From Massalongia carnosa (taxonomy: Eukaryota), in the NCBI GenBank assembly GCA_965645245.1, contig OZ287086.1, positions 1,116,001 to 1,180,000 of the forward strand: a stretch of DNA of 64,000 bases, written 5' to 3'. A program made the translations under genes and the position numbers. Shown here piece after piece: positions 4,189 to 35,214 of this stretch. A model generated the notes under the pieces. That model ran no database searches, was not told the DNA's origin, and worked only from the letters and a program-made list of their open reading frames with translations. The number at the start of each line of letters is the position of its first letter. The stretch's first letter is position 1.

Positions 4189-5898
4189 TCACGTCTCGTC
4201 CTCCAGCAGCGAAGTCTCCTCGCCGCGAACCTGGAGGGGCCCGCCACGGACGGCCTGCAGTCCGAACCGACCCAGCAACGCCGTCACCCCCGTGAACATG
4301 ATGAGGCGGCCAAACTTGGTGCCGTACGCGAATTTCAGCGTGCCCTGCGGCATGGCCGAGTCGACCAGCATCTCCCCCACCGGGCCGCTCAGGATGCAGC
4401 CGAAGCCTCGCCCCGCAGCCAAAATGCCCATGATCACCGCGACCTCGGCGTCGGGGGTTTTGTTCCGGATTTCCGTGGCGCAGCCGGTCCAGGTGGACGT
4501 GTACCCCCCGGCGAATATCCCGTATGTAATCGCGAACATGTACAGGACCGGTTCGACAACGGCGAACCCCCACAGCAGGAAAACCGACAGGGCCGAGCCG
4601 ATGGCCGAAATGAACAACACCGTCGACACGTGCAGCCGGTCGCACAGAAAGCCCATGAAAATCATGCCCACGGTCGCAGCCGTGTTCAGCAGAGAAATGC
4701 TCGCGGTGGCGGTCAACGGCGAGAAGCCGATCGATGTGGCATAGTCTGGAATCCAGTCAGCAGCGCTCGTCCTCGGTTTCGTGGGTCAAAGGCTCACCTG
4801 ACATGAAGATGTGTGGCATGAAGTATCCAAACCCTTCAATCACGTTGCCGATTTGAAAAAGCCAGAAGGCTCGTTGTCGAAGAAATCCAATGTTCAACAG
4901 TCCTGTTGTGCGTTTCGCTGGAGGAGGTCGTCGTGGGCCCATACAATACACCAACGTCGATAGTATCACCAACTGATTTGGTAAATCGTATGTTAGCGTG
5001 CAAGGTCTGGAGTTACGCAGCGCAGATGCCCTCACAGGAATGGAATGACCCTTACCGTGAGTACTGCCCAGACCCGCAAGGTTGTCCTAAAGCCATACGT
5101 GTGCAACGCCCAGTTCATGAGCATCGGCATCACCGTTCCACCGACGCCCGATCCCGCCCAGAACACGCCATACGCAAGCCCTTTCCGTTTGATAAACCAG
5201 TCATCCAACCAGAAGATGAATGGATTGTACACGAGGCATGCGCCTATCCCATACAACAACCCCTGGGTCAGTATGAGGTTGGACACACTGTCCGCAAACG
5301 ATGCAGCAACCAGAGAAGTGGTGAGGCAGACCACACCAAGGACGGCGCTAGTTTTCTGGAACCTAGGCCATCGTTGTAGCACCAACACCGCGATCGGCGC
5401 TAAAAAGTATGCAATCCCCTGCGACGCATTTAGCACCTCTTCACATCGTTGACCGGCAATCGTCTCACCAGCGTGGTGGTTCCCACCGCAGCCACTCCCG
5501 GCTGCGACGAGAACGGCTCGAGACGAGAATAGTAATTCTCGAAGACGCCGTAGGAGAAGGGGAGTGCTAGGTTCCGTCACTTCAGTTGCCGTTGCAGAAC
5601 ACCGATCGGGGCATGATCCCTTACCCCAGATAAACGCTTCGAGGCAGAAGCAACCTCCTAGAAAGAGCCAGGCGGCGGCTCCGTAGTCCGCGGGCGGAAT
5701 CCCAGCGTCTTCCTCCCAGACGGGTGCCGCCGTCTTTCCTGAACCCGACAGTGCTGTTCCATAGCTTTTGGGTCTTTCTGCACCCGGTCGGGGGTGGGGG
5801 TCATTGGTTGGACAAGACACGTTGTCACGACGCTGAGTCTTGCCGTCTGGTTTTTCCACACGAGGCATTGGTACGCGCGGGTGCGTGTGCGTGTGCAT
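4189..5898 (-). CDS. MFS transporter, monocarboxylate-porter (MCT/Mch)-like, about 4 introns
   Basis: Exon ORFs: PPADYGAAAWLFLGGCF, LILTQGLLYGIGACLVYNP...DDWFIKRKGLAYGVFWAGSGVGG, FWLFQIGNVIEGFGYFMP, MGFLCDRLHV...GCILSGPVG; GT-AG introns; stop TGA at 4189. Start could instead be ATG at 5868. Confidence 0.88.
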
Positions 5899-6804
5899 CT
5901 CGATGATTGACGTTGAGAGAGGAACGACGAGAAGGGTGTGGGATGGGAGGGGAACTCCGAGGGAGAATTGCCAATATAATCAAGCGGACAGATACGGTGT
6001 GGAAAGATCTAGATGCTCTGGATTCTTCACGACGTCATGGAGGGGGAATAAGCCAATCTGGAACATTTCACGCTCTGTCATCGTGAAAAGTCAAACGCAC
6101 TCCCCGAACCAATCAGACGCCGGCCGGTGGATTCCGGACTGGTTTCGGTAAGTGAGATCATAGTAACTACTTCGTACATCGTACACAGTACACGGAGGAG
6201 GAACTGCATCGAGCGGAGTCACTAACCCAGTCCAAACCCAGTCCAATTACCGAGTACCACCAAAGCCCGTATTAGAGTATTACGTAAGATGGCCACTGAG
6301 TTGCCTCAACCACCTGGGCTGGGTGGCTGGGTACTCCTATCGTTTTATGATCAATCTTTAAGTAGAACAGGGGTTCGAGTCCCTGTTAGCGCGGGCCCAA
6401 TCCTTAGTGGGGTTGATGGTTTTGGGTTCTGCCACTGGCCACATGTGGTGTCCCCTTGTCGAGAGCTGAATGCGGTCTGGCCGAGGGGCTCACATGCCAA
6501 TCAGCAGCGAGAGCATGGCTTGCTGGATAATCAGAACTTTACAATGTAACAGTCGATCATGAGCCGACACATCGATGGCCGGATTGCGGGTGGCGGCTTT
6601 TCAGCTGCTGCTGCCAGATCTCAGACCGTGCGTAAAAGCCGCGTCGGACTAGCCTTACTCAAGCCGAACTACGCAGGTTTACGTCCGGTGATGACAATCA
6701 TGCGACTCGGGTGGTTATGACTACGAGTGATAACTACAAACAGTGCCCGAATCCTAACGGTGCGCGTGCCCAACGTGAAGCGTCGTGGCGAATGAATCCA
6801 TGAA

Positions 6805-9004
6805 TCACGCGTCTGATTCCGAACCTGCCGAGTCTCGCACTTTGGTGCAGATCCAGGTGGATTGGTACGTGGGATCGCTGTCAGAAATTAGTCAACCGTT
6901 GATGCTCGCCATGTGTGGCCAGGATGGAGGCCATACCGATCATCCTGATGCGGCGAATGGACTGGATGCGACTGAAAGCCCGACGCATTGAAGGCGGCGA
7001 TATAAGAGGGCGTGAGCATGGTGGAATGAAGCAGTGCCCGACCCTCAATCCGAAGAGCACGGTTCATGGCGAAAATCCGTCGGCTCGTCTCAATGGAGTC
7101 GGATGTGATCACGTCCATCGTGTGCATAACCTATGCGATGATCAACCGGACAATGACAGCGATAAAGTGACAGTGCGGTACGTACGACAACAACAGTCAA
7201 GCTTCCTGGCGCGATGCGACCGAGAACTACGCTCAAGTCCTCGGTGTGAATGATCAATCCCTCAAAGGTATGGGGCGATGATAGTCGATCAAAAGTGTCA
7301 GAATCTCGTAATGCTGTATGGAGACTAGACGATGATACTTATTAACCATGGAGCAGCGGCTGGAGGGAGCAGACTCCAGCTACCTTGCAATGGGTGTTTG
7401 ACGTTTCACGTCATGGATCCCTGCCTGGTGCAACCAAAACTGTAAAGCACGGCTCGACAGGTACGGGCTGACTCTCGAGATCAGAGTCCGGCAGAATGAC
7501 GCAGGATCGGTATTGCCAAACAATGACAAGAGTCCGGGGTGATCGAGACAAGCGTAGGACGCGACGTGGAGTTCCAAGACATGGTTTGAGATGGGATTGT
7601 CGTCAACAGCGTGGATCTGTAGAGGCCGCTCCTTGGCGTACTCTAAAATGTTATCGCCACCACTGGTCAGCGCCAAAACCACGTCGTCCGTATGGATCTT
7701 TAGTATCGCTTTATCCTTCCAAGAGTCTTCGCAGGTGAAGGGCCATCGGCACTGTACTAGACGAGCCGACTTTTCCAATTTTTCATCGTACGGGAGTCTC
7801 CACTTTTTATTTTGGTAATAATAGCAGGGCAACGGCAAGTTTGTTCCGAGGTTCAATACAGCAGCGTCGTAAGCGGTGGACCGGATTTTCATGACGTGGA
7901 GTGCTTTGTGCTGTTGGACGTGGTCCTCGATATCAACCGACACGGAAGAAGTGGCCGTGGCGTTGAGTCGTTGGATTTCTTCTTCAAGGAACTCTCTAGA
8001 GTCTGTTACGGGTGAGTGCAATGTCTTGAGACTACCAATCCAGATGTAGTACGGGATAAAGCGGTAATGATAATCCCAGCGGTTGACATTGAGGATAGAA
8101 CCGAACTTGTATTCTAAATAATCCCTTCTCGAGGAGTCGAGGTTAATCCGATCGATATCAAACCATGCTCTCCAAAACATCCTACTCCACGAGCCAACGT
8201 GTCGTTTCGAGAAGCCTGCCGTGTAATTTCGGCTGGCTATGTCGCATTGATTCTGGACATAAAAGTCTACTACACCGACGACACCAGACGGAGAAAGTAT
8301 AGTGGTACATAAATCAATCGCAGGACAAAAGTCTGGGATGGCCGACAATGAATAGGAGAAAGTAATCAGGTCGGCGTGAAAAGTATCCTTAGCCAAAAGG
8401 GAATTGGCGCGACCCCTGCTGCTAGTATCACTGTTATCTTCGGCTTCTTCAAAGTCCTCGAGACGAAGACGGGATGCATCTTTACAGATGATCCGGATAT
8501 TCGTCCAACCCAGACGATTAAAGCGTTCCCGGGCCACCTCCAAGAGCGATGGTGTCAGATCCACCAAGTAGACTCTCTCGAAAAAGTCCGGAACAGGAAG
8601 GAATTCGGACATGGCCTCCACATTATAGCCCGTGCCACCACCAATCTGGTCATCAGTTCGGTCAGCTTATCCACAGCAATAAGGTATTTGCTTACGTCTA
8701 TCCAGATTGGCTTTCGGCTTCCGCTCTGTGGCTGATCCATTCTGTACGACAACTGAGCTGCCACCAGCCCAAGCAAAGCTTCACGACCAGGCAGAAAGTA
8801 CGACCGAATGGCATCATACTCGCTCGCCTGCTCTTTGTATTTGTTCTCCAAGAAAGCCTGCGGGTTCGAACCATCTCCGTCTTCGGCCCGAGGCTTCAAG
8901 AAAGTCCCATAGACAAATTTCCACGCAGACAACACCGACGAAGCATTGTTGATCGTGAAATAAATCAAAGGCACTGACAGTGCGGTTGTTACAAGTGTCC
9001 ACAT
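6805..9004 (-). CDS. BTA1: Betaine lipid synthase (BTA1)-like protein: N-terminal SAM N-methyltransferase (BtaB-like) plus shortened, divergent BtaA/DUF3419-like domain; about 4 introns
   Basis: N-terminal TM helix; Y..QASEYDAIR; WID/IGGGTGYNVEAM; TFSYSLSAIPD; GVVDFYVQ; RRDYLEYKFG; ALTSGGDNIL. Further exons give FEGLIIHTED..GSLTVVV, MNRALRIEGRALL and STWICTK ending in TGA at 6805. Confidence 0.82.
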
Positions 9005-10211
9005 TGGGTAGGCTTCGATGAAATGCGTCGGAACGGAGAAATCATAGGGAGGGTGAAACTGTGCAACGATCTTTGGTCAATATAAAACTCCAGTCTTCAA
9101 GGAGCTACTGAACACCAGTGGCAAACGGATTCTCATGAGATGCATACTGCCTCAGTTACGTCCTCGCTCCGCATGTGTTAGATCCACATGAGTCGATTGA
9201 GGAAACGGGCGTATAGAGGACGGCCAGCTTTCCAGTAGTTGTGCCCACTGGGGCCATGCAGGTAGCACGGCAACGCAAGCCTCTACTGCTCTAGATACAA
9301 ACTCCGTAGGGGATTCCGCGTTCATCTTGCCCACGCTCTTGAACCAAACTTCCTAGGCGAGAAATATCCTTTGGCGATACTTACAAAGTAGTAATCTAGG
9401 ATGTTTGCTCTTCTCGATGTCAACCTGGCCGCCGTGCATCTCAACCGCATTAGCATTATTCGCGCGCATGCAAGTATGCCTTTAGTTGCGGTACCTGCTC
9501 CGTACGCTGTGTTCTGAACCGAACTATCTATTGAAATAACTTTCCAATGTATCGTGTTTCATTACGCTGTATGATTAATGTCCTTGTTATCGGGAGTACT
9601 CCGTACATGTAGAACCGCAACGTTAATCCATAAACAGAACCGTGGCGTCCCCTAAAGCGGCGTGGGCGATAAGATAGGCGTTCCGGAAGCGAGTAGTCTA
9701 CGTCCGTCCAGGATTTCTTCATCGCCGAGCACTCAAGCGGTTCGCTCATGCATGCATCATGCAAAGATGCAAAGATGCTCGAAATATATTCTGCTGCCGT
9801 ACTCTGTACACGAATGTGGTGGCTTGCGTTGGTGGTGAAATAGATGCATCTAGGTTTTGGAGTCCTGCAATACGCTCTAACGTACCTCCGTACTTGTTGA
9901 TCGGTTCATCAACACCCCAGCTCAATGCCAACGCGTATCCTGCAAGCCTTCACTATCAGGACGGGCTGGCCTTCACAAGCAAGCGGCATTAAAGTGGGGT
10001 CCTTGTTAAGCACTAAAGCAAGCCATTCTGGGGGACGTGCCTAGAATCCCATGTGTCAAGAAAAGCTGTTAGGTGCTGATGGCCTTCGCTGCACTCCGAG
10101 GCCGATTCTGGGACGACGAGTGTGTCTTCCTCGATCCACGCCACCCAAGAAACTCGTCAAATATTGAAAAACTCGCTCGCGATGAGGTATCAGGCGTGAC
10201 ACCAACTTAAC

Positions 10212-12288
10212 ATGGGTTCTCAAGCAGTATCGTACACTGATCTTTTGATCGTGGGTGCTGGGCCGGCTGGCATGATGGCTGCGGCATGGGCTAGTCAGTA
10301 TCAGATGTCAACGCGAATCATAGACAAGAACTCAGCACGAACGAGCAAAGGACAGGCGGACGGGTTGCAGTCCAGAACATTGGAGATATTTGACAGCTTC
10401 GGAGTTGTAGATTATGTCTGGAAGAAAGGATTTCATGACATAGAAATGGGGATTTGGGTATGTAAGCCAGCGCTTCTACCACCGTGTTGACTCTGATGTG
10501 ACATAGGAGGCTGATAAGAATGGGTGTGCACAAAGACTTCAACGAGTGCTCTGTCAAAAGGTTGGTCTCAGCAGGTACACACAAATCAGCATTCATCAAG
10601 GTGCGATTGAACAAAGTCTTCTGGATGTGATTCGCCCAAAATTCTCGGTAGAGAGAAACGTGACTCCGGAGGAGCTGGAACTAGATCATTCAATTGTAGA
10701 CGAAAACGATGCCTACCCAATTACGATCACCCTTCGCCATAATAGGAGAACTCCGAATGCGAACGAACGCAGTGACACCCAGAAGACCACGGATAACTCC
10801 CATGGTGATTCTCCCAGCGGTACTGATAACGCTGGCGAGAGACAACGCGTGGAAAGGGAAGGACTTGAGATTGTCAAAGCCAAGTACCTGGTTGGCTGTG
10901 ACGGTGCACATAGTTGGACGCGGAAACAGCTTGGTATATCTCTAGAGGGCAAGCAGTCCGATTCGATTTGGGGCGTCATGGACATTGTCCCCATCACGGA
11001 TTTTCGTAAGGATTTGCTCTCTTCGAGAAATTCATTTGGCTGACCATCCCCAGCCGACATCCGTCAATCCTGTGCCATTCATTCCGCAAAATACGGCAGC
11101 ATCCTAAACATCCCCCGCGAGAACCGCCTCAACCGCCTCTACATCCAACTGAACCGCGACAGCCAGGACCCTGTCTTCGACCGAACCCAAGTCACCCCGG
11201 AAACCATGCTGCACGTAGCGCAAAACATCCTGAAACCCTACACCCTTGAATTCCGGCACTGCGACTGGTGGTCCATCTATCAGATCGGCCAACGTATCGC
11301 CCCCAATTTCAGCGTCGCCTCCCGCATTTTCCTTGCCGGCGACGCGGTGCACACGCATTCCCCGAAGCTGGGCCAGGGCATGAACGTATCCATGCAAGAC
11401 AGCTACAACCTGGGCTGGAAGCTCGGCAGCGTCATCACAGGGCGCTCCCCGCGCGCGTTGTTGGCAAGCTATGAGGACGAACGGCGCCGGGTCGCGCTTC
11501 AACTCCTGGCGGTGGACGAGGAGATTGCTCGTTTCTACGCTCGTGCGAAATCAGAGGCAGCGGACTCGACAAACGGGGATGAAACCGACTTCGGCGCGAT
11601 CCGGGAGAGGATGTATGAGTTTTTGGCGGGCATTGGCGTTACTTACGGGCCAAGCGTTTTGGTTGCCGAGTCCCAGGGAGCGCTGGCGACGAAGATCACG
11701 CTCGGCGCGCGCTTCCCGTCCCATCAGGTTCTGAACCAGGCGGAAGCACGGCCGATTCAGCTGGGCGACATGCTGCCGAGTGACGCGCGATGGCGTGTGA
11801 TTGTTTTCGCGGGCGACATCACCGATCCCGTGCAAGCCCGACGGATGCAGCAGCTCGGCGACGCGCTCGCGGCACCGGACTCCTTTCTCCGCCGCTTCAC
11901 GCCTCCGGGGCAACGGATTGATTCCGTCATCGAGATTCTCACCCTCCACAACGCTCGGCGGACCGCCGTGAGCTTGGCCGATTTCCACCCCATCTTCCGG
12001 CCGTTTGACGAGGAGCTGGGATGGGATTACTGGAAGGTGTTTGTGAGCGACGTCCCCCATCACGGGGTGTTTGTGGATGCGTACGAGAAGTATGGCGTTG
12101 GCAAGGACGGCTGTATGCTGGTTTGCCGGCCCGATCAGCATGTGGGCCACGTGGGCGCGTTGGAGGACGTGGCCGCCGTGGCGAGCTATTTCGCGGGGGT
12201 TTTGATCCCCTGCGTTGGATCGTCATCGGGAAAGATGGGGGGTGTAGATGTTGGGGGGGCTCCCGGGCATATGGGGGATGGATGTTAG
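10212..12288 (+). CDS. FAD-dependent aromatic hydroxylase (phenol 2-monooxygenase family), 2 introns
   Basis: GAGPAG Rossmann motif, GQADGLQSRTLEIF, VGCDGAHSW, FLAGDAVHTHSPKLGQGMNVSMQD, C-terminal thioredoxin-like domain ending RPDQHV. Confidence 0.92.
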
Positions 12289-12548: not shown

Positions 12549-13340
12549 TCACTTGACCACCGCCAGCAAAAACCCATCGTAATTCTTCTCGCTGACCGTC
12601 TGCAACAGCACCGCGTCCACGCCCTCCATCCGCCCAATGCCCTCCACCGCCCTCCGGATCCCCTGGACGTTGCGATCGCTGACCGCCAGCTCCTCGTCCG
12701 CCAACAAGCCCTTGCGCACCATGTTGTCCAGATAGATGCACGCGCCGGGGCGCGACATCTTCACCGCCCACTCGAAATAATCCAACGCCTCGGCCTTGTC
12801 GGCATCGATGAAGGCGAAATCGAACCGGTCCCGCTCCCCGCGCTCGACCTCGGCCGCGAGCCGCGGGAGCACCTCCAACGCCGAGCCGACGACGACGTCG
12901 ACGCGGTCCTGCATGCCCGCGAACGCGAGGTTTTCCCGCGCGACGGCGGCGACGTGCTCGTCGATCTCGATGCTGGTGATCCGGGCGTGGGGGCGGCCGC
13001 TGGCCATCCAGATGGTCGAGTAGGCGCCCAGCGTGCCGACCTCGAGGATCCGCTCGGCGCCCACGAGCTGGCACTGCACGGCCAGGAACTTGCCCTGGGA
13101 CGGGGCCACGGAGATGTCTTCCAGCCCCTTGGCGAGCGAGTTCCGGAGCGCGTGCTCGATGGCAGCGTGGTACGGCTTGGAGGCCGGGTGGAGGCGCGGG
13201 ACCGCGTACTCGTCGACGGCCGTCCAGCGGGGGGTGGTTTCCGTGACGTAGGCGTTCGGGTCGACGCCCCAGTGGGGGAGTTGGGTGGTTGGAGCGGCAG
13301 CGGTGGCGTGATGCTGGGAGTTTGCGTGATCGGTCGCCAT
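12549..13340 (-). CDS. SAM-dependent O-methyltransferase family 3 (catechol/CCoAOMT-like), intronless
   Basis: ISVAPSQGKFL, ILEVGTLGAYSTIW, FDFAFIDADK, YLDNMVR, KNYDGF. Confidence 0.92.
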   Translation of the reverse strand: MATDHANSQHHATAAAPTTQLPHWGVDPNAYVTETTPRWTAVDEYAVPRLHPASKPYHAAIEHALRNSLAKGLEDISVAPSQGKFLAVQCQLVGAERILEVGTLGAYSTIWMASGRPHARITSIEIDEHVAAVARENLAFAGMQDRVDVVVGSALEVLPRLAAEVERGERDRFDFAFIDADKAEALDYFEWAVKMSRPGACIYLDNMVRKGLLADEELAVSDRNVQGIRRAVEGIGRMEGVDAVLLQTVSEKNYDGFLLAVVK

Positions 13341-14244
13341 TGTTTTTTTTTATGTTGTCCCTTCCTCGACGTCTTTTTTTTGTGAATTAGTGAGGAGTCG
13401 AGAGGTGGGAGGGGGTTGTTTGAAGAGAAAGGTGCAGTTTTGATGTCTGCTTTGGGATCGATCCTTTGCCGGGCACCCCTCTGCCCTTTTTTTTGGTTAT
13501 TGTCTTTGTTTTTGTTTTCGTTCGTGAAGATCACGAATCGACGTCACAATTCCGAACCACCGTAATTACTCCGTATCGTATCAAGTCCGTATTGACTCCG
13601 TATCGACTCCGTATCGAAAGAAACGCGTTTCATGTGTCGACGATCAGACCGAGGCCGAGAACGGAGGTAATCGTGCGTCTTTTCCGAGTCTTGTACGACA
13701 GACCCGCAGCCGAGAAGCGGGGCGAGTGAGGGGGAGGTGGGGAAAAGACACCTTTTTGTCTCCACATGTTTGTATTCTCTCTACTCCGTATGTAACTCGG
13801 TACTCGATACGGAGAATGCCATATCGACAAACGGCTATCTACACTGGGTACAGAGTCACGAACGATGCATGTTCGATGCATGCGTGCGGGAGTGATGGTA
13901 GATTACAGAGTACGCTGTGCAGAACCAGTCTGTCTATCTTTAGTTGCGGCATGCTCGGCATCACCATGTCGATACTCGATAGTCGGTCGTGACTCCGTCG
14001 TGAAACTGCGTTCGACATGAGTACAGATACGGAGTACAGATACTCGGTGTCTGTCTGTCCACGGCACAGAGCGTGCTTTGGTTACATATGCACGGCGTCA
14101 CTAGCACCAAGACGCTCATCCGGAACGAGCTTACTCCGTACACGTTCCGATTAACTAATCGTGTTGGTGCGTGATTCTTCGCTTGCTCGTTTGGGCCGTG
14201 GCGCTTTCGGCCTCTGGACTCGACCGAGGACGGAAACTGGGTGG

Positions 14245-14912: not shown

Positions 14913-17900
14913 ATGTCGTCGTCGATGCAATACGGCTTCGAACCTGGCGTTTCGGACAATGTCCAGACCTTCCTGCGCCACATCTTCCATCTGCTGGGAA
15001 CCGTGCGCCACATCGCGTGTCAAGAGAAATCCACGCACGATGTGTCCCCGGACAATGACAGTGAGAGTGCTCCGCCACACCTCGTCGGACGACGGCTCCG
15101 CTCAACTGACGGGTTAGACGCGCAGAATCCTCCCAGGGTCGAGTTCGCCGTGTCCGCGAGTCTGCAGGAGTGTGTCGGTCGCATCGGCGATGCCTTGCGG
15201 GATCGTTCTCGGGAACGGGAGGCGGAGACGTTGCAACACGTCCTCGAACTGAGCGGATCCGACGTGGAGCTGGGAGGGCTGGGAATTGGCCCGGCCCTTC
15301 GGTCCACTCCCTGGCCGTTGAGCGCCAGGAACCTGGACGATGTGGCCTTCCTGGTCGAGGCGTGGCTGGAAGCGCTCAACTCCGCCGACAACGCGCGACC
15401 GTTGCCGGCACCGGTGACGGCGAGAGACCCCGCGCGGCGACCGATGACGCTCTCCGAGAAGATCTTCGCCCATCATGCGACCCGCATCCCCTCGCCGGCG
15501 GGGATCAAGCCGGGAGATTTCATCCGGGTGTTGGTGGACTGGGTGATTGCGAGCGAGTTGTCGTGGGTGGTCAGTGCACCGCTGCATGCGTCCGTTCGCG
15601 ATGGGAATTAACCGGCGATGAGGAGCGGATTAGGGGATGAAACACAGCCTGGAAAGCATCGGCCGACCGCCGACGGTCTGGCGAAACGATCGCTTTTGGC
15701 TCGCGGGCGACCACGTGGTCGATCCACGAACGTACGAGCAGCCTCGAGTGCGCAAGCTGATGGACGGAATGGCAGAGGCCAAGAAGCGCTTCCGGATGAC
15801 GGAGAATCAAGGCTCCAACGTGCGCTGCCCTCCCTGCTCTCGTGGTGTGCTTGGGTTGACGTGCAGCCTGATGACGACAACAGTTTACCATCTTGCACAC
15901 GGAGTTTGTTCGCGAACGCGCCGAACCGGGCATGCTGGTCGTGGGGTCGGATTCGCACACGTGCTCCGCCGGCGCGGTCAGTTGCCTGGCGATTGGGCTC
16001 GGAGCCGCCGACGTGATGATGGCGCTGGCCACCGGGGAGACCTGGTTCAAGGTTCCGGAAAGCATCCACGTGCGGCTCGTGAATCGGCCGGCGTGGTACA
16101 TCAAAGGCAAAGATACCATCCTCTACATCCTGAAGGAGCTGAAGCGCAACACCGTGGCGGCGGACCGCATCGTCGAGTTCGGCGGACCGGGCGCTCGACA
16201 CTTGTCGTGCGATGCCCGGTTCGCCATCACCAACATGTGCACGGTGAGTGCGCCTGCGTCCCGTGCCCTGATGAAGTCGCATCGCGCTGATGACCGCCCC
16301 GGGGGGGGGGAGGGGGGGTTTTGCAGGAACTCGGAGGCATCACGGGAATCTTTGCACCGGACGAAGTCACGCACGCGTACATCCACGCGCGCGCGCGCAA
16401 AGCCCATAAGGCATCGTCCCGGTATTTCCAGGCCGACCCCGGAGCGCAATACGCCGAGACGTTTGAGATCGATCTGGCTCAAGTCGAGTCCTTTATCGCG
16501 CTGTATCCATCGCCGGATAATGTCGTCCCGATCACGGACAAGATCGGCATGCCGTTCGACGGCTGTTTCATCGGAGCGTGCACCACCACCGAGGAAGAGC
16601 TCATTCTGGCCGCGCTCGTGTTGCAGGTCGGCCTCGAGGAGAACCTCCCGCTCGTGCCAGGCAAGAGACAGGTCGTCCCGGGCTCGCTTCCCATTGTGCG
16701 CAAACTCACGAAGCTTGGCCTCCTGGAGGTTTACGAACGCGGGGGCTTCGCTCGTGCGGCTCCCGGCTGCAGCCTATGCCTGGGCATGGGCGCCGATCGT
16801 GCCGAGCCTGGCGAAACATGGCTGTCGTCGCAAAATCGAAACTTCAAAAATCGCATGGGGCACGGTAAGCTGCACGCGCGCACGCTCGCAGGAAATGGCT
16901 CCTAACGTGGATTGCGTCCCGTAGGGTCGTTTGGGAACATCTGTTCCGCCGCGACCGTGGCCGCGTCGTCCTTCAGCATGACCCTGACGGATCCCCGACC
17001 GTTCTTGGCCAAAGTGAAGCCGAGCGATTACACCGCTCTCCTGGAAACACGTCAGGCGTCTCCAAAGATGCGTCCCGCAGGGAACCCTCCCGACAGCGGC
17101 TCCCGCTTGACCTTCGTGGAGCCATACCTTGCTTGCGAGGACCCGGAACCACATCACACGACCAGCAAGGTTTCCCAAAACGGCCTCGCCGTCAATCCGA
17201 CGACTCCGACGATTCAAGGCAAGGCTTACGTGCTCGGGGATTTCGTCGACACTGACGCGGTAAGCCTCGCTCCGTCGTTCACGCTGATTGAACCCTCCCA
17301 TGCGCGTCGTGATTTAATCGGACGTTTCGTAGATCATCCCCGCCTCGTTCATTCTGGCCAGCCCCACGGACGAACAGCTCGGGAGCCATTGTCTCGAGTA
17401 CACGAACCCCGATTTCCGCGAAAAGGTCCGTGCCGGTCATGACATTGTCGTGGCCGGCAAGGCGTTCGGATGCGGATCGTCTCGCGAGGAAGCTCCCCGG
17501 GCACTCAAAGGCAAGTCTCGCGTCTCGTCCCCTCCCGATCGACGGCGGGACCCGAACGCATGTCCCTACCCATGCGGCTTTGCCCGTCCACGCTGACCAC
17601 ATGCTCCTCGGGGGGCCACCGCAGGCTTGGGCGTCAAATGCGTCATCGCGCGCTCGTTCTCCTTCATCTACGGCCGGAACCAACCGTCGATCGGGCTCCT
17701 CGGCATCACCATCGCCGACGACGACTTCTACGCCCGCGTCGCCACGGGCGTCGACATTGCCGTCGACGTGTCCCGCCGCGCCGTCGTCGTCGCCGGCCGC
17801 CACCGGTATCCCGTCGCCTTCGACGACATGGAACTGCGCCTGATGGAGAGCCGGGGGCTGGCCGGAGCGTTTTTGAAGTACGGCCGTCGGGTGTTTCAGA

Positions 17901-17989
17901 ACCTGTGCGCCGAGAGCCCGGCGACGCGGACGGATGAGGCGGAGGAGAAGGAGGAATGGGACAGCGCGAAAGCGCAGCTGGCGTGGTGA
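14913..17989 (+). CDS. Aconitase-family isomerase (fused LeuC/LeuD-type isopropylmalate dehydratase; htyD/AMT8-like), 6 introns, last one GC-AG
   Basis: [35 protein letters not shown] and PGCSLCLG (three Fe-S Cys), [12 protein letters not shown]; swivel domain [28 protein letters not shown]. Confidence 0.92.
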
Positions 17990-18428
17990 AAAGTTATTGT
18001 TATTGTTGTTATTGTTGTTGTTGTTGTTGCTGCGATGATTTTGTGAAAGGAGAATTTGAAAAGAAATAATTCAATCAATCAATCAATCGATCTATCAATC
18101 AGACTTAAGCGAAATCGTGTTGAATCAATCGAGAAAAATAAAAAACAACAATCAGTCATTCACTTGAAGATCCAAAAAAGATATATCTCTCTTCTCGTTT
18201 TTCTTCAGATAAACTAAACTCGACCTTTTCTGATGTGTGATTTCAAGTAAAAAGATCCTTTTTTTTCCTTTTTCCCGCGCGCATACACACACACGCCCAC
18301 ACACACACACGATTATACTAACAATCCACCAATTCCGCGCGATGACAAACAAAACAAAACAAATCGAAAGAATCCGGAAAAGCTGTCATGTTTTTTTTTT
18401 TTCTCAAGTTACATTAAACAGGCATTAT

Positions 18429-18608
18429 TCATTCCCCTTCTCTGCTCTTCTCTTTGCTTCTCCCAATCTCCCCCTCCGGCTCCCGCACAACCTCCACCCA
18501 CCCGTCCGGCCCCCCGGCCCCCCTCCCCGTCTGAATCCCCCTCAACCGCCCCACCAGCCTCCCGTAACAGCTCCGGGGGCCCAACCACCGCGCCTCGCCC
18601 CCCTTCAC

Positions 18609-18640
<32 letters not shown>

Positions 18641-19903
18641 TCCCCCCGTACCGGAACGTGCGCCCCGCCGCGCCGTGCTCGATCGATCGCACCGGCACCA
18701 GCACTGCCGCCGTCCCCGCCGCGAACACCTGGTCGAACGATCCTAGCTCGGCCGCGCCGATGCGCCGCTTCTCCACCGTCCAGCCGAAGCTGCGCGCGAT
18801 CTCGCACACGCTGTCGCACGTGATGCTCGCGACGATCTGGTCGTCCGAGACGACGAGCGTGTACTTTTCCTCCTCCCTCCTCCTCCTCCTCCTTCTGCTT
18901 CTGGAGGTGGGCTTCGCCGGCACGGTCGGGCTCAGCGGTCGCCCCGTCCAGCTTGACCCCGATGAAGGCGCTCGTCGAGAACTCGTCAATGGCCGTGTGC
19001 GTCGCGCTGTCCAGGTGTAGCGTTAAACCGTAGCCCTTGGCCCGCGCCTGATCCAAGATCCCGAGCATGGGGCCATAGTTCCCGCCCAGCTTGGCGCTGC
19101 CCGTGCCGAGCGGCGCGCAGCGGTCGAAGTCGTCCACCACCAGCGCGTCGACGGCGTGGGCCGCGTGGCTCCCGTGCAGCGGCCCGACGGGCAGCGCGTA
19201 GATGCAAAACGTGTAGTCGGCCGCGATCCGGAGCCCCGGCGAGGCCGACGTCGCGAAGCAGAGCGCCCGCAGGTACAGCGACGCCGCCGTGTGGTGCGGC
19301 GGCACGAACTCCGAGTTGAGCCCCACGCATAGGTGCAGGCAGCGGAGGAAGTGCTCGTGGGGCACCGCGGGGATGGTGACGAAGCGGGAGGAGTGGGCCA
19401 GTCGGAGCGCGTTGAGGAGGGGGCGGAAGAGGAGGATGGTGTTGTTCGGGGAGCGGTGAGCTATGTGGGTGGGTGGGCGAGCGTTAGGGGGATTTTAGGG
19501 GGAGGAATGGGAAATGATGAGGAGGGGGAGGGGGTTACCTTTTAGTCCCTCGAAAGCTTGCTGGCCATAGTTGAGACAGGGGGCAAGACCGTGGATGCGG
19601 AGGACGGGGTCTTTAACGAAGACTGGCGCGCTCCAGTGACCGGTTGAGGTCGAATAATACGATTCGATGTGCCCGTTGACTTCGAGGGCGTCGAAGCCTA
19701 GGTTATCCCAATCTGTGTGGTTTCACGAAGTCGTTCTTAGTCATCATCGGTTGTGTATGTATATAAGAACAGGAGAAATCGAGAAAGAAGAAAGAAAAAA
19801 AGAAAAAAGAAAAAAAGAAAATAGAAAAAGAAAGAATGAAGGAAAGTATTTGTAAAAAAACATAGATACCTATTGTTTCGAGTGGAGGGCGTGGAAATGT
19901 CAT
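18429..19903 (-). CDS. Branched-chain amino acid aminotransferase (class IV PLP; htyB/AMT5-like), 2 introns, apparent 1-bp frameshift at ~18877
   Basis: MTFPRPP.., DWDNLGF, LNYGQQAFEGLK, LYLR, GSAKLGGNY (PLP lysine), IDEFSTS, SITCDSV, FAAGTAA. Confidence 0.88.
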
Positions 19904-21246: not shown

Positions 21247-23178
21247 ATGCCAATGTAGGTGCTTGATTGTCCGACGGTGGAGTGCTTGACGGATCGGGAT
21301 GCCTTGGTTTTTCGAGAGTATGATGTCCTAACTAACGGTTCTTTTTCATTACCTAGTCAAGATCTATCCACAAAATATGGACGAGTTGCTCCACCGTTGG
21401 ACCTGCCGAACCGTCAATGGCCATCCAAGACCCTAACCAAAGCGCCGATATGGCAATCGACGGACTTGAGAGATGGCAATCAAGCTCTCAAAGTGCCAAT
21501 GGTACGTAAGATCCCCCCCGACACCATGGGAATATATCCGTGTAGGGGCTAACTCGAACATAACCTATAGACGTTGAACCAGAAATTACAATACTTCGAG
21601 TTGCTGACCGGCCTCGGCTACAAATTCATCGAGGTAGCTTTTCCTTGCTCCTCAAATCTAGAATATGATTTTGTGAGGCGTCTGGTGGAGACTCCGGGTG
21701 CGGTGCCGGACGATGTCACTTTGCAGGCCATCTCCCCGTGCCGAAAGGATGCATTGCAAAGAACAGTGAATAGTTTGCGAGGGGCTAGGAGGGCGATTGT
21801 TTTCACCTACATTTCCACAAGCGAAAATTATCGGGAGACCATATTTGGAATGTCGGAAGATGAATGCGTACAGCAAGTAACCGATTGCATAGCCTTTGTG
21901 AAGTCCATCACAGTAGATGATCCTACCTCCAACAACACAGAATGGCGATTTGGCTTCGGATGCGAGGACTTCAGCAACGCACGTCCAGGTTTCATTGTTC
22001 GTCTTGGCGAGGCGGTCAAAACGGCCTGGGGACCCACCGTAGAGAAGCCTTTAATCTTCGGCTTGGCGGCCAGCGTTGAAGGAACCACTCCCAACGTCTT
22101 TGCTGACCAAGTCGAATACTTCCTAACCCACATAACCGAACGCAGAAAGATCTCGCTTTCAATCCACCCCCACAACGACAGAGGCTGCGCTGTGGCTGCT
22201 GCGGAACTGGGCTGCCTGGCTGGCGCAGATATGGTCGAGGGCTGTTTGTTCGGAAACGGCGAAAGGGCAGGCAATGTCGATTTAGTCACTCTAGCGTTGA
22301 ACTTTTTAAGACTCGGCATCAATCCGGGGATCGATTTCTCCAACTTAGCAAAGGTTCGGGCTATCGTGGAAGATATCACCAAGATTCCTGTGCATCCGCG
22401 CGCGCCTTACGTGGGAGACTATTATTTCCTAGCCTTGAGTGGAACACACCAAGACGCGATTAGAAAGGGCTTTTCGCGTCGTGACGACGGAGGCCGGGCG
22501 ATGAGTGACGGGACCATGAATGGCACCGATAAGACCAAAGCGTGGTGCGTGCCGTACTTGCCGATGGATCCGGCCGACGTCGGTATTGAGCAGGCCAACA
22601 TCATTGGAATCAGTAGTCAAAGTGGTAAAAGTGGCATACTTTGGATGCTCCAACACACGTTGGGACTCCATCCTCCAAAAGAACTCGCGATGCTTTTCTC
22701 CCAAGCAATCAAAAACACATCCATGGAACAAAAACAACAGTTAGCAGCGAAAGAGATTTGTAGCCTGTTTCTCGACACTTATCATGAGCGACGGTTCAAC
22801 GACGGCGTCGCTCAACTGTCTCGCGAAGGAAGCCCCAACATTGTCTCCATCGACATAGGATCCCTCGAAAAGCATATTCCCAAAGAAACAGAAGATTCGG
22901 TCGTCATGCACTCGGCGGTAGCGAAGTTGTCTCATGCCCTCGATGTGGATCTCTCATGCGTTGAGTATTCATCGCATATCGTGGAGAAAAGGGCGCAGAC
23001 GAGTGCGTTTGTTAAATGCTCAGTGGATGGAAAGGGCAGTGGGTCGTGGGGAGTTGGAATCGGTTCCGGCCTGGCTATGGCCTATCTCTCCGCTATCGTT
23101 TCCTCCGTTACTGTAGGTTTCGTCCTTTCTTTGCCTTTTTCCGTTACTTTATCTTGACAGGAGATTCTGACTGTATGA
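21247..23178 (+). CDS. 2-isopropylmalate synthase-like enzyme (yeast Leu4 type; htyA/AMT7-like), 3 introns
   Basis: MPIQDLSTKY after splicing 21255-21356; [47 protein letters not shown]; last exon EILTV*. Confidence 0.92.
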
Positions 23179-23419: not shown

Positions 23420-24936
23420 TTAAGATTTGCCGGATTCCTCCAACAACGATGCCACGACAGCGTCACCAAATTCCTTGGTCTTGGCCGATCCACCGAGATC
23501 TGGTGTATGAACGCCAGCCTCAATCACCTTGCTGACCGCGGATTCTATTGATGCTGCCTCGTCGGGCATGCTCAATGAGTATTTCAGCATCATCGCCACG
23601 GACAGAATCATGCCGACTGGATTCGCGATACCTTTCCCTGCTATATCTGGAGCCGAACCTGCAATGAGAAGACCGTCATCAAAAGAAACCCTAGAGGGGA
23701 ATTCGTAGAATCCGAGAGAGCTCACCGTGTATCGGTTCATACAATCCGCGGACACGGTCTTTGAGATTGGTGGATGGGATCCCGCACAAGCTGGCACTCG
23801 GGAGCAAGCCCAAACTACCTGGAATCACACTTGCTTCGTCCGAGATGATGTCTCCAAACATGTTGCTGGTCAAAATTACGCCGTTCAAGCTCCGCGGGTT
23901 TCGAACCATGACCATCGCCGCGCTGTCAATTAACATGTGTTTGAGCTCAACCGAAGGAAACTCGCGCGCCATGGTTTCGCTGACAACACCTCGCCATAAC
24001 CGCCCTGCAGCGGCCAGCAGATTGGCTTTGTCCAAACTTGTCACACGCAACGGTGGATTGTGCGCCATAGCTAGGGTGCCGGCAAGCCGTGTAATTCGTT
24101 CGATTTCGCCACGAGTGTAGGATTCCAGATCCGAGGCGGAGTCAAGCGTAGCGTTAGGTTCGCAGCGTGTCCCATAATAGATGCCTCCGTTCAGCTCACG
24201 GACAATAATCATCGAGGCACCGCGGCACACCTCGGCTTTCAGCGGCGAGAGATCGACCAGAGACGGGGCAGCAAAGAAGATGGGTCGGAGGTTCCCATAG
24301 GTTTGCAATTCCTTGCGCAAAACGCCGAGGCCGCTCTCCGGCGGAACGGGTCCTGTGCCCCATTTCTGTAGCCGTATATGATTGAGCATAAGAGTCCGCA
24401 CCTGTGAACGAGCACACCCGGAAAATGTACAGAGACAATAGATTGGAGACAGGACAGGAGCAGGAAACGTACAGGCCCGCCAACTGCACCGAACAACACG
24501 GCATCGGCATTTTTTGCCGCCGTTAACGCCTCTTCCGTTAGAGGAATGCCGTATTTATCAATTGATGCCTGATTTCGTGACGAGGACAAATGTCCTGTAT
24601 GTCAACTGGGATCATAATTACTTGTTGGGGATTGGGCCACACAAAGAGGAAGCTTACGCCGCCCACAAGATAATGACTCAGCTCAAGTCGAATGTCCGTC
24701 CGCCGCTGTTGAATGACACCCAAGACCTATCTTGGCGTAATTAGTTTCAAGCATTTCGACGGAACGTCCAGTTGAAGGAATGAGGTCGCACCTTAAGAGC
24801 TTCCGTCATTACCTACATGTACATAGCGTCATCCCTCTTGTTAGTCTAGACATAAAGATTCATCGGAGTATCCTGCTTGTACCTCGGGTCCGCAATAATC
24901 GCCTGCCATGACAACAACTCGATAAGTCACTGACAT
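23420..24936 (-). CDS. 3-isopropylmalate dehydrogenase-like enzyme (htyC/AMT6-like), several introns
   Basis: [83 protein letters not shown]. Confidence 0.92.
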
Positions 24937-29017: not shown

Positions 29018-32000
29018 TTAACTCGTGGATTGTTCGGTTGCTATCCTCACGTCTCCAAATTGGCCGAGGAGACGTGAGGATAGCATGAATTTGGATGCTG
29101 CCTTGGCCAGTCTGGGGGTGCTAAAAATTTCTTGGAGATCGAACACCTTCCGGCCTATCCAGATAGTCTCCATGCGCAATCGATGGTGCCTGACGCACTC
29201 CAGAAGCACATGGTGAACTGTTTGATAACCGAAGCCGCATGGGCATTCGCCCGTTTCGGTGCGGCCTATATCTGAGAGATACTTGCGTAGAGACCAATCT
29301 TACTGTTCTCATCTGCACCAGGGTGGAACTCATTGACTTGTGAAGCCCCTGGTAGAGCTGCAAGACCTTGTTAGTGGGCTGGGGGAGGAGCTTTTTCGTC
29401 ATCTGTCCGCGTTTTTCTGCCTCCCAATCCCCAGCCCATTCTTTGCTGATCATTGTCCTCATGTTGCGTTTTATCGCCGACTTCACTGTGTGTCCGAGGA
29501 AGTCGAAGTGGGTGATGGAGGGACTCTGGCCAGGTTCTAACCAGCCTGATGCTTCTTTTGCTGCTTGGTCTGCTATCTCGTTGCCTTCTACTCCCATATG
29601 CCCAGGTATCCAGCAGAGTCTGACTCTGGCCTGCATCTCCCGGCATGCGTGGAGTTTTCCAATGATCTCGCGTAGTATGAACTGACCTGATTGAGTTCCG
29701 GGGTCGGCTACTGATTTGATGGCTGATTGATTATCTGCAAAAACCGTTATTATCTCCCCTTGCCATCGTGCAATAGCCGCCGCCAGTCCCAGGTCGATGC
29801 CCACTAGTTCCGCGAGGTAAACTGTGGCTTCTTTGTTCGTTCCGAGGCGGGTTCCTACCCGTGTGTTGTCGCTGGGGATGACTGCTGCCGCACCAACTCC
29901 GAAGGGGTTATCACTCCCATCCGTGTATATGACTATTTGGTTCGGCTCTGATGTCATCTTGTCATGCTCTTTGATTGCTTCCTCTTTACTGGAAGCAATG
30001 TGCGTTTCGGGGGGAGACCACCATGGTTCCACTATGAATGGAAGAATGACCTCTAACCGCCAGGGTTGAGGGCATTTCCCCGAAGTCATTAAGCGGGACT
30101 CTAGCTTAGCTAGAGGGCTCCAGTATCGATAGTGGGAGTCCGCTTGGCTTGTCCAGGCGCGGATCTCACGTATTATGGCGTAAAGGGGGCTTGAACGTAT
30201 GCGCAGTAGTGACTCGTTCACTGCCTGCTCCATGCGTTGCCGGCCAGGCAGGAGGTGAAGCTCCATATCCAAGGCCGGGCCCGAGGTTGTTCTAAATGCC
30301 CCTGAAATGATCAGTGCCGCCCGTCGCTGAATAGATCTGACGGCTTTGAGCACGGCGGTTGCTTGCGTGATAGTCCCGTATCCGCCCTCGGGAACATACC
30401 ATGCAGAGCATCCAAAGGTGAGTTGCGGTAGTATGGTGGCTTGATAGATCCTTCGAAGGCTCGCAAGACTGGTGCCCCATGTGGAGCCCGCAAGGCTGCC
30501 TAGGGCCCCCAGTCTCTTTGAGGTTTTGGCTTCCAGTTTCCTTAAATGGGCGTGCCATTTGAGCTTGTCGTCGAATGTGGCGCCCAGGTAGGTGGCGGTA
30601 TGCTGTGGCTTGATGGTTTTGCCCGCTAGGGAGATAGCTCTCTCTGGGGGGTTCAAATCCGTCTCTGAGGGTCCTTTGATAAAGTGCAAGAGCTGGAATT
30701 TGGCGGGGGCAAATTTGGAGGCGTGTGTGTCCGCCCATTTCTGCTCTCTCGTCATGAACGAGGCTTCGAGATTTCTACAGTTCTGTTCTGCTGAAGTTCC
30801 AATAATTAGTTTGGATATGTCATCGACATAGCCCAAGTTCATCTTTTTGGGCCCTTCCTCTTCCATAAGGTCGGCGTTGTAGAAGAGATAAAGAATAGGA
30901 GATATAGGGGATCCCTGAGGGACTCCAAAGTTCGTGGTGAATGGTTGCGAGGTGTAGTCGGGCATGGCGATGGTCGTTTTCCTTTCCTGAAGGAAGCTTT
31001 CGATCCATTTAGCTATGTTGCCGCCTATTCTTCTCTTCCGTAGGTTGTGCAGTAGTCTTTCGTGGGATACGTTATCGTAAGCACCCGAGATGTCCAGCAT
31101 GAGCACTGTGGCCACTTCGTTGTTAAGCCAGGCTGCGTGGATGGCCTCTAGGAGCAGATGGAGGGCATGTTCGGGTGATCTAGCTCGCCTGCCGCCTATA
31201 TGGAGTCTGGGGAGTAGGCTCTCGGTCTCCACCGCGTGATTGATTCTGGTTGCAATGATCTTCTCCATAGTCTTACCTAAAGTGTTGAGCAAGGCTATGG
31301 GTCTGTATGAATTCGGCAAACTGTAGTCGGCCTTAGCTGGTTTTCTGAGAACCACCGTGGTGGATTCTCTTAAAGCATTGGGGTGATGACCCAGTTCCCA
31401 GCTGGCGTTATACAGAGCTACAAGTGTGGGCATGATGAGCGGTAACACATCTCTGAGGATTCTATTAGGCAGTCCGTCGGGGCCTGGGGCCGAGAGTGGT
31501 GCTGCCTTTGTGATGGCTTTAGTTATTTCCCGAGCTGAGATGGGAGCAAATTGGATTGGCTCTGGATAGTGATAATCGGCCATGTCTTCAAGATTGGTCG
31601 CGTCCGGGATAGGAAAAAACTGTCTGCGAAGCAGTTCAGCCTTGCCCGAGGCCTCCGTCACTTTGGAGCCATCGCTTTTCATTAGGGTTGGGGTGAAGGC
31701 TTGGAATGGGGTCGACCTGTTCTTAGCCCATTTCGCAAGCTTCCAGAGACCATCTGGAGTGCTGGTGGCCTCCTCTACCCTGTCCCTATGTGTTGTCTTA
31801 AGAGCTTTTTGTACGATTTTGTTTTTGCTGTTTCTCGCCTCTCGGTAGGCTTCCCAGTCTTCCAGAGAGCGCGTTTCCTTATGCTTGCGCCTGAGACGTC
31901 TGCATAGGGTGACTGCCTCTTTGCATTCCGGGGTAAAGCCAGGTTTTGAATGATTGCACCCTCTAGAAAGTGGGACTGCTGTCTCCACTGCGTGCTGGAT

Positions 32001-34435: not shown

Positions 34436-35214
34436 AGGTCTTTGCTTCTGATATGCCTCGCAGTAGTTAAGTTATTAAGCACATTGGTGAGGAAGTGACG
34501 ATGCTCGTCTAGTGAATCGGGGGGGCGTCGTTGGGCACGACAAAAGAGCTCCCCATGGTTGCCACAATGCAGCCACAACAGAAGGGACGATATAACTTTC
34601 GGCCAAGATAGCTACAGAGTCGGGGAGCAATTCTACGTGATCACAATGACTATTGAGGGCTTGTATGGGTAACGAATGCAATTTCTAGTGCTAGCTAAAA
34701 AAGTGCCAAAGTTTTTGGATGACAGTACGTAGTAACTGTTTAAGCATCTCGTTAAGCCTAGGCTTGACGTTTTCAGCCTTATATGGATAACGTAACTCAC
34801 TGGGCAACGGGACAAACTGGGCAACGGGACAAACTGGGCAACGGGACTAACTAAATTTCGCTTAATTTCTACAGCCTCCCTCTCACCCGTTTTACATACA
34901 AATTCGGCTTCAATGTCTATTAGACGTGAAATTGATATTTTGTCTGCATGCAACTTAATCACATTTTACGTGGTTGACGTACAATACGACCCCGTCTGGT
35001 AGTTTGAACCTTCTTCACCTCCTCTACCACCTCCACCTCCACCTCTACCCCCCCACTCACCTTCACCTCCTCCACCCCCTCTACCTCTTCTGTCATTGGT
35101 TGAAGCACGGGAGGAGGTAGTAATCGTCTTTGAAAAGAACAAATAGGCTTACTTTGTGAACTATCAGGTGCTTTCTGAGGACTTTTCTGAGGACTTTTCG
35201 TCGAAGATGCAGTA

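Follow-up and report, generated by a model that had tools for sequence, protein, structure and literature searches.

Fungal Bta1, the synthase of diacylglyceryl-N,N,N-trimethylhomoserine (DGTS), a betaine lipid, joins two S-adenosylmethionine (SAM)-dependent halves in one protein, a BtaB-like half followed by a BtaA/DUF3419-like half; this order is found in Neurospora crassa, Candida albicans and Cryptococcus neoformans and in the canonical proteins P0018, P0020, P0058 and P0397. Rhodobacter sphaeroides uses the same two chemistries and the same Pfam families (DUF3419 and class I methyltransferase; compared by family, not aligned), but there BtaA and BtaB are separate proteins. To our knowledge, Bta1 is known only as an enzyme of primary metabolism that swaps phospholipids for DGTS when phosphate is scarce. 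BTA1 is placed in the phosphate-starvation regulon in the accessible text of a preprint (bioRxiv 10.1101/199133), and the accessible parts of two papers count BtaA among the few known SAM aminocarboxypropyl transferases and list it only as a lipid enzyme (PMC10491745, PMC11869996). Here we analyze a BTA1-like gene in a stretch of 64,000 nucleotides (nt) from Massalongia carnosa (NCBI GenBank assembly GCA_965645245.1, contig OZ287086.1, positions 1,116,001 to 1,180,000 of the forward strand), hereafter called the window and numbered from its first letter. We find it to be intact and to belong to a hitherto undescribed "short Bta1" lineage derived from fungal Bta1, and it lies in a cluster with genes of homotyrosine-forming types.

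Over exon 2, canonical Bta1 proteins are 42–50% identical to the BTA1-like protein (canonical rows among the matches listed), and both have most SAM motifs, the linker motif LPLP..YQN and the C-terminal W.CTK motif. Unlike canonical Bta1, the BTA1-like protein lacks 135–138 amino acids (aa) of an insert, has a weaker N-terminal anchor, carries 15 clade-wide residue switches, falls in a separate clade, and is encoded in a cluster of secondary-metabolite type. Its two halves are fused, in contrast to the separate proteins of R. sphaeroides, and the BtaA part is internally truncated.

The gene occupies 6805..9004 on the minus strand and consists of five exons (Table 1). Its coding sequence of 1977 nt specifies 658 aa with the terminal codon as the sole stop, and its four introns, of 50, 59, 55 and 59 nt, are all GT..AG. 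Alignment of the predicted spliced product to canonical fungal Bta1 extended from the FLKP region at the N-terminus to the W.CTK motif at the C-terminus. The gene is thus intact, with its frame kept over four introns and homology reaching the last exon, as had been proposed in an earlier reading of the letters alone (hereafter the sequence-only reading). The motifs on which that reading was built (IGGGTG, SYSLSAIPD, GVVDFYVQ, RRDYLEYKFG, CRWPFTCED, VDDNPISNHVLELH and MHTMDVI) all lie where it had put them in the minus-strand translation. The intron that it had placed at 7326-7384 corresponds to a predicted GT..AG intron, with coordinates that were one base off (7325-7383). In a Pfam search, exon 2 matched Methyltransf_11/25 and positions 10-119 of the DUF3419 profile (E 1.5e-33), and weak DUF3419 matches followed at positions 261-301 in the exon 3 frame (E 0.026) and 301-360 in the exon 4 frame (E 4.9e-4). 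No counterpart of profile positions ~120-260 was found by Pfam in the gene.

We then focused on this gap in the BtaA-like half. The landmarks QFWL and FEGLIIHTED are separated by exactly 35 aa in the BTA1-like protein and by 170–173 aa in all five full-length canonical proteins, in agreement with the spacing of about 35 aa, far under the canonical one, given in the sequence-only reading. The BtaA domain has therefore lost ~135–138 residues. All 34 canonically conserved columns of the deleted segment are effectively gone (the single match counted is a chance one), including the motifs GLYxTGGS, TLNEQRxxW, GVP..Q and TLDP, and the protein does not have a complete BtaA/DUF3419 domain with its helical insert.

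As a structural reference we used the AlphaFold model of canonical P0018, which has a mean predicted local distance difference test (pLDDT) score of 62; in its BtaA part the means of 10-residue blocks run from 53 to 92 and are mostly above 65. The BtaA part of this model folds as a Rossmann domain: strands lie at 328-332 and 349-353, helices alone span 357-579, and further strands follow at 588-591, 607-613, 637-646, 663-667 and 686-691. In P0018 numbering the deletion spans ~420-562, a stretch that in the model comprises about ten helices and no core strand. As modelled, the loss is most of the all-helical insert between BtaA Rossmann strands 2 and 3, with every strand kept, and this insert would likely be the part that binds the lipid substrate. 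A PDB sequence search returned no solved BtaA structure, only generic class I methyltransferases, and Foldseek likewise returned generic class I methyltransferases and nothing BtaA-like. Loss of one canonical exon was considered as the origin of the deletion and dropped, the canonical metagenome copy L003 having no intron in the BtaA region. In L003 (10459-12324), a single uninterrupted open reading frame (ORF) covers everything between mid-BtaB and the stop, indicating that introns 2–4 of the BTA1-like gene are not universal in the family.

Exon 2 had 715 homologues at E <=1e-5, the best 120 of which are listed. Among these 120 are 15 protein clusters of 389–468 aa that are 52–57% identical to BTA1-like exon 2. 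All 15 are ORF calls over exon 2, and those that reach the exon end run past the same junction after ..PIA, where the following R is a codon read across the splice donor. In P0010 and P0141, in-frame read-through exposes the next exon (..CHPACLERE..GLTIHTEE..LTIAIV), unspliced, 58–59 residues after QFWL. In P0012 and P0132 the read-through goes out of the coding frame, which fits an intron that requires splicing. The short clade can be recognized by an exon that ends in ..SSRALQFWLH..PIA, with ..GL.IHTE(E/D) soon after it and no canonical insert in between. As judged from these alignments, the deletion is not private decay: it is common to 15 other protein clusters.

A quick IQ-TREE analysis of 54 rows set the BTA1-like protein and 14 relatives apart from 39 canonical rows, with a Shimodaira–Hasegawa-like approximate likelihood-ratio test (SH-aLRT) value of 100 for the branch and a stem of 0.56 + 0.47; the BTA1-like protein, whose own branch is long (0.54), did not group with characterised and annotated Bta1. 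A tree constrained to join the short clade to the canonical pair of Toensbergia type, a constraint picked after the tree had been viewed and one that involves long branches, was rejected at a cost of 18.9 log-likelihood units (approximately unbiased test, p-AU 0.0135). Lichen-forming fungi also have canonical Bta1: an 860-aa protein of Toensbergia leucococca and an 865-aa protein of Lichina confinis each contain the complete insert. The presence of full-length canonical Bta1 in lichen fungi indicates that the short form is a paralogous lineage, and together with the split in the tree it bears out the separation from canonical Bta1 put forward in the sequence-only reading. Within the canonical rows, the Amanita brunnescens-labelled and Aspergillus candidus-labelled Bta1 (P0089/P0107) group tightly, an odd pairing of a basidiomycete with an ascomycete that could come from contamination or transfer.

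For the C-terminal part, a search with exon 4 against 1.84 billion representatives gave two short fragments only, P0392 and P0393, both with the LHS and SGFQ signature and one of them still starting with MDSMD; conservation of the C-terminus in the clade is read from these two fragments and from exon 3 of P0010 and P0141. A metagenome scan with the clade alignment produced 124 pattern matches and four confirmed loci at 43–46% identity, and among them no short-form DNA; the sole locus inspected, L003, is canonical with a full insert. The protein atlas gave just generic DUF3419/methyltransferase clusters.

To compare the two halves, we defined conserved columns as those at least 90% conserved among 36 canonical sequences. 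The BtaB half of the BTA1-like protein keeps 62 of 73 such columns (58 of 73 are kept in at least 80% of clade members), and with its SAM-binding motif IGGGTG and the other conserved family motifs it has the features of an N-methyltransferase of this family. For the N-terminal half of the BtaA domain (BtaA N-half) the figure is 52 of 73 columns, against 49 of 73 in the clade, and motif I (LALTSGGDN) and the acidic residue after strand 2 (HAVD) are retained. Mean identity to the main clade group is 0.62 for BtaB, 0.31 for the linker and 0.60 for the BtaA N-half. These values indicate that the BtaA remnant is constrained rather than drifting, since its identity within the clade is close to that of BtaB and far above that of the linker. 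In canonical proteins the BtaA N-half is better conserved than BtaB (~0.70 vs 0.62), so that some relaxation of the BtaA half is visible.

Fifteen columns, located in both domains, hold one conserved residue in canonical Bta1 and another in the short clade; among them are, in BtaB, R→W and G→R and, in the BtaA N-half, H→F, R→Q and H→A. The BTA1-like protein departs from its own clade as well: at four positions conserved both in the canonical proteins and in all of the 14 clade rows it carries another residue, namely W to C (FTWE), Q to S (NPxQNH), K to H (LELK) and one E to Q, and MDSMDWF has become MHTMDVI. The four replacements are particular to this protein and its 98% relative P0121. The canonical forms given in the sequence-only reading, YIYAFTWED, VDLNPxQNHLLELK and MDSMDWF, are indeed those of the canonical fungal proteins compared here. 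Its description of the BtaA half as "eroded" is right in that the half is divergent and has lost 135–138 aa, but overstated in view of the 52 columns kept and of a deletion and most motifs that are common to the clade. At the N-terminus, the best 19-residue Kyte-Doolittle mean is 1.28, compared with 2.36–3.16 in four of four canonical proteins; the strongly hydrophobic membrane anchor is thus not found, and on the predicted start it is weakened relative to canonical Bta1, with an upstream exon that escaped recognition as a possible explanation.

A near-identical relative was available for comparison. Among the matching sequence sets, X1 and X3 were the same DNA, X5 was identical at low depth, and X4 was a lichen metagenome copy with 98.5% identity, the same gene order and an intact exon-2 ORF. 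Seven of 409 aa in exon 2 differ from this relative, all in loops, the linker or variable positions. Two of the three visible differences in exons 4-5 are synonymous (40 of the 110 substitutions were listed, all at or below 6960), and no indel falls within 6805-9004 among the 12 of 27 indels listed.

The sequence-only reading had assigned the gene to a cluster, and it does lie between a major facilitator superfamily (MFS) transporter gene and a set encoding a phenol hydroxylase, an O-methyltransferase and HtyA-D-like enzymes (Table 1). The phenol hydroxylase gene is intact, since the in-frame stop at 11041-11043 sits inside a normal GTAAGG..GCTGAC..CAG intron; its nearest named relatives are from lichen fungi, at 56–60% identity, which together with the metagenome copy points to a lichen fungus as the probable source of the window. 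The isopropylmalate-synthase (IPMS)-like protein is of the HtyA/GloH type and, like its nearest named relatives, lacks the LeuA_dimer domain (PF08502): it is 47–54% identical to named proteins without PF08502 (49–50% to gloH and htyA) and 44–47% identical to proteins with PF08502. All three HtyB-D-type families (aconitase-like, isopropylmalate-dehydrogenase-like and class IV aminotransferase) are represented nearby. In the aconitase-like gene, Pfam matches are confined to profile positions 108-225 and 341-445 and two short Aconitase_C pieces; nothing matched the first ~107 positions, and the gene has either many introns or damage. No adenylation, condensation, carrier or polyketide synthase (PKS) domain, as expected of a nonribosomal peptide synthetase (NRPS) or PKS, occurs in the 71 ORFs scanned in the 64-kb window, which include all those of at least 528 aa. 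The PHO-type box CACGTG is absent from the divergent intergenic region, a weak observation because the whole window has 12 occurrences against 13 expected by chance.

Table 1. Exons and introns of the BTA1-like gene and neighbouring features, in window positions.
Feature	Position	Strand	Remarks
MFS transporter	4189..5979 (approximate)	-	PF07690 in two ORFs; in tandem with and downstream of the BTA1-like gene
BTA1-like gene, exon 5	6805..6877	-	TGA 6807-6805; DPTYQSTWICTKV... homologous to canonical DRVNMYASCWICTK
BTA1-like gene, intron 4	6878..6936	-	59 nt, GTATGG..TGACTAAT..CAG
BTA1-like gene, exon 4	6937..7130	-	MHTMDVI...MNRALRIEGRALLHS..PSYIAAFNASGFQ; C-terminal strands of the BtaA-like fold
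BTA1-like gene, intron 3	7131..7185	-	55 nt, GTACGT..TAG; canonical P0089 and P0107 sequences stop at the same ..LTIAV(V) point
BTA1-like gene, exon 3	7186..7324	-	LHTALRD..FEGLIIHTEDLSVVLGRIAPGSLTVVVV, BtaA Rossmann strands 3 and 4 (588-591 and 607-613 in the P0018 model); aligns to canonical CHP..LRIHTDE..LTVAVV
BTA1-like gene, intron 2	7325..7383	-	59 nt, GTAGCT..TAG; coincides exactly with the ~135-138-aa deletion junction
BTA1-like gene, exon 2	7384..8645	-	Entire BtaB-like class I SAM N-methyltransferase domain, linker, and the BtaA/DUF3419-like domain as far as QFWL..PIA (its first half, with strands 1 and 2 and the initial helices)
BTA1-like gene, intron 1	8646..8695	-	50 nt, GTAAGC..GCTGAC..CAG; splices ...IWID to IGGGTG (canonical VWVDIGGGTG)
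BTA1-like gene, exon 1	8696..9004	-	ATG 9004-9002; weakly hydrophobic N-terminus and conserved FLKP...GRE..LGLVAAQL region; aligns with N-termini of canonical P0013 and P0089
Divergent intergenic region	9005..10211	.	1.2 kb, between the BTA1-like and phenol hydroxylase genes
Flavin adenine dinucleotide (FAD)-dependent phenol hydroxylase	10212..12288	+	PF01494, PF07976
Catechol/caffeoyl-CoA-type O-methyltransferase (Methyltransf_3)	12549..13349	-	PF01596, E 4.1e-28
Aconitase-family (HtyD-like) gene	~14883/15875..17989	+	Start undefined; Pfam matches scattered over several frames
Class IV aminotransferase (HtyB-like)	18409..19494	-	PF01063
Isopropylmalate-synthase-like (HtyA/GloH-like)	21571..23157	+	Without the LeuA_dimer regulatory domain
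Isopropylmalate-dehydrogenase-like (HtyC-like)	23420..24601	-	Three ORF pieces; PF00180 positions 42-348

The four Hty-like enzyme types are the same as those of the hty cluster of the echinocandin producers (HtyA-D in Emericella rugulosa / Aspergillus pachycristatus, GloH in Glarea lozoyensis), and the IPMS-like protein lacks LeuA_dimer in both settings. According to the accessible part of one source, enzymes of the HtyA-D types convert 4-hydroxyphenylpyruvate to L-homotyrosine (PMC8948627). Compared with the echinocandin hty clusters, the window adds the phenol hydroxylase, the catechol-type O-methyltransferase, the MFS transporter and the short Bta1, and it contains no NRPS in 64 kb; none of the P450 and oxygenase genes of the echinocandin clusters was seen in it.

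We tentatively propose, as the likeliest single function, that the BTA1-like protein N-trimethylates a homotyrosine-derived amino acid and has departed from lipid metabolism. It would no longer make a membrane lipid. With three SAM, its BtaB-like domain would convert homotyrosine, or alternatively a ring-hydroxylated, O-methylated homotyrosine derivative, at the alpha-amino group, which would become a trimethylammonium group. The resulting betaine of an aromatic amino acid would be soluble and exported by the MFS pump. The natural head-group substrate of BtaB is a gamma-O-substituted 2-aminobutyrate (O-alkyl-homoserine); homotyrosine, a gamma-aryl 2-aminobutyrate, would present the same spacing and geometry. 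If the Hty enzymes provide homotyrosine ready-made, the BtaA step would be dispensable. The replacement of four otherwise conserved residues suggests that classical aminocarboxypropyl transfer has probably been lost in this lineage. The BtaA-like remnant, kept by selection, might then serve in SAM binding, as a folding partner, or in a changed catalysis. A comparable reaction is that of EgtD/Egt1, which converts histidine to hercynine by three SAM-dependent methylations of the alpha-amino group. The likeness lies in the proposed reaction only, the BTA1-like protein (Pfam Methyltransf_11/25-type plus DUF3419) having no family relation to EgtD/Egt1.

Lichens are described as accumulating an aromatic amino-acid betaine, sticticin, a major metabolite of Sticta and Lobaria: in the accessible part of PMC6332210 it is a methyl ester of DOPA (3,4-dihydroxyphenylalanine)-betaine type, with N-methyl groups and a 3,4-disubstituted, oxygenated ring, and no biosynthetic genes for it are named there. 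The predicted cluster product would be a one-carbon-longer relative, sticticin having a C3 side chain and a methyl ester. Literature searches, with subscription journals and supplements outside their range, turned up nothing joining homotyrosine, betaine and a gene cluster and nothing linking a betaine lipid synthase to a biosynthetic gene cluster; the DUF3419 literature found, in its accessible parts, concerns algae, plants, a plant pathogen and a cyanobacterial lactylate gene cluster.

Several observations weigh against the proposed trimethylation of homotyrosine. Integrity of the homotyrosine cassette is not proven, because the aconitase-like gene is patchy in Pfam. Apart from the window, the near-identical relative is the only place where short Bta1 was seen linked to hty genes. 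As a proxy for linkage elsewhere we used equal nt size of the contigs recorded for matches, a weak measure since only the longest contig of each representative is recorded and most are below 10 kb; by this measure, no contig with a short Bta1 (sizes up to 51,571 nt) equals one of the listed phenol hydroxylase or HtyA-like matches. By the same measure, pairs of phenol hydroxylase and HtyA-like genes appear to share contigs of 25,347 nt (P0277/P0161) and 102,588 nt (P0358/P0163), and these contigs have no BTA1-like match among the best 120 of 715; judging from these sizes, an NRPS-free "homotyrosine plus ring hydroxylase" cluster may recur in related fungi. In E. rugulosa, the hty cluster and the NRPS gene are 42.5 kb apart according to the accessible part of PMC8948627, so that hty genes may serve a distant NRPS, and the window holds only 4 kb of sequence upstream of the cluster. 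The donor of intron 2, GTAGCT, is unusual, and retention of this intron would bring a stop at codon 525 and end the protein at residue 524; the sequencing runs matching the gene gave only contigs, with no RNA dataset among them. At the aa level, exon 2 is twice as far from the near-identical relative as the neighbouring hydroxylase is (7/409 vs 3/360). Finally, conservation of the BtaA-like half across the clade suggests that this half is probably still doing something, which argues against its being a passenger.

This last point leads to the possibility that both halves are active on a soluble acceptor, with the BtaA-like half moving the 3-amino-3-carboxypropyl group of SAM to a phenolic oxygen of the (hydroxylated) homotyrosine product and the BtaB-like half trimethylating the result, to give an aryl-O-homoserine betaine. 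Besides the constraint on the BtaA-like half, such an activity would be in keeping with the retained motif I, HAVD acidic residue and strands, and without the helical insert small acceptors could gain access to the site. Aminocarboxypropylation of phenols by SAM is itself known, from isonocardicin synthase and the bursatellin pathway in the accessible parts of PMC11869996 and PMC10491745, and the phenol hydroxylase and the O-methyltransferase would between them supply two ring hydroxyls and make them distinct. However, the W, Q, K and E replacements and the altered MDSMDWF motif speak against it, the phenol aminocarboxypropyl transferases described in the accessible literature are non-homologous to BtaA, and the Hty cassette already yields a gamma-substituted aminobutyrate, so that an extra step is unneeded; we regard dual activity as unlikely. 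To a similar degree unlikely, if marginally less so, is that the short clade has a conserved function of its own unrelated to homotyrosine, making another soluble or lipid betaine, and that its adjacency to hty genes is a coincidence or a very recent arrival. The contig matches, which tie none of the other short forms to phenol hydroxylase or HtyA-like genes and include two hydroxylase plus HtyA-like contigs with no BTA1-like match among those listed, agree with this, as do the 15 clade-wide switches in both domains. Nevertheless, the contig-matching test is weak, cluster-type genes stand on both flanks, and the BTA1-like gene has its divergent promoter region in common with the hydroxylase.

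The unusual donor of intron 2 and the raised aa divergence, twice that of the neighbouring gene, could instead mark a relic in decay, a pseudogene that is not expressed or not spliced, within a cluster that is breaking down next to a region rich in transposons. The four replacements at otherwise conserved positions, the missing first D in MDSMD, the patchy aconitase-like gene and the transposons from 29 kb onwards would all suit such decay. Yet 1977 nt are open through five exons with homology to the last codons, the metagenome relative keeps its exon-2 ORF, the seven changes avoid conserved positions, two of the three visible differences in exons 4-5 are synonymous, and the indels listed spare the gene, which makes a relic improbable. 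Still less probable is a protein that remains a DGTS synthase, only shorter. Retention of both domains, of their order and of most motifs, and an N-terminus that is still weakly hydrophobic and homologous to the canonical anchor, speak for it; against it stand the 34 lost canonical columns, with GLYxTGGS and TLNEQRxxW among them, the long stem that parts the clade from canonical Bta1, the canonical Bta1 present in lichen fungi, the weakened anchor, the lack of a PHO-type box upstream and the secondary-metabolite setting.

If trimethylation of a homotyrosine-derived amino acid is the function, this conserved paralogue would clearly exemplify the recruitment of an enzyme of lipid synthesis to secondary metabolism, and it would have shed a likely lipid-binding cap and most of its anchor hydrophobicity within an NRPS-free homotyrosine cluster. 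It would also offer the first genetic handle on the aromatic amino-acid betaines of lichen fungi, and a natural cap-less BtaA variant would be a useful probe of how the fold selects the SAM substituent to transfer. More doubtful is a wider extension, in which short Bta1 proteins would generally be soluble small-molecule betaine synthases made by excision of the helical cap and would stand behind sticticin-type betaines, with some members still aminocarboxypropylating a phenol to give an aryl-O-homoserine betaine; no natural-product class of aryl-O-homoserine betaines turned up in the literature searches.

Beyond the Hty-like genes, the cluster ends in a transposon-rich stretch (29121-38861). 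This stretch contains a long interspersed nuclear element (LINE)-like element with endonuclease, reverse transcriptase and RNase H (a 1272-aa ORF on the minus strand), and two overlapping, oppositely oriented ORFs for pogo/Tc5-type DDE transposases. It is followed on the plus strand by a NOD-like receptor (NLR)-like gene (39416-43043) that combines a patatin-like phospholipase, an NB-ARC/AAA_16 NTPase and a long array of TPR_10/TPR_12 repeats, as do fungal proteins of non-self recognition. Two bodies of Ty3/gypsy-type long terminal repeat (LTR) retroelements, with gag, protease, reverse transcriptase, RNase H, integrase and chromodomain, lie further along the plus strand (50160-55520 and 58844-63998), the second of them split into several ORF pieces.

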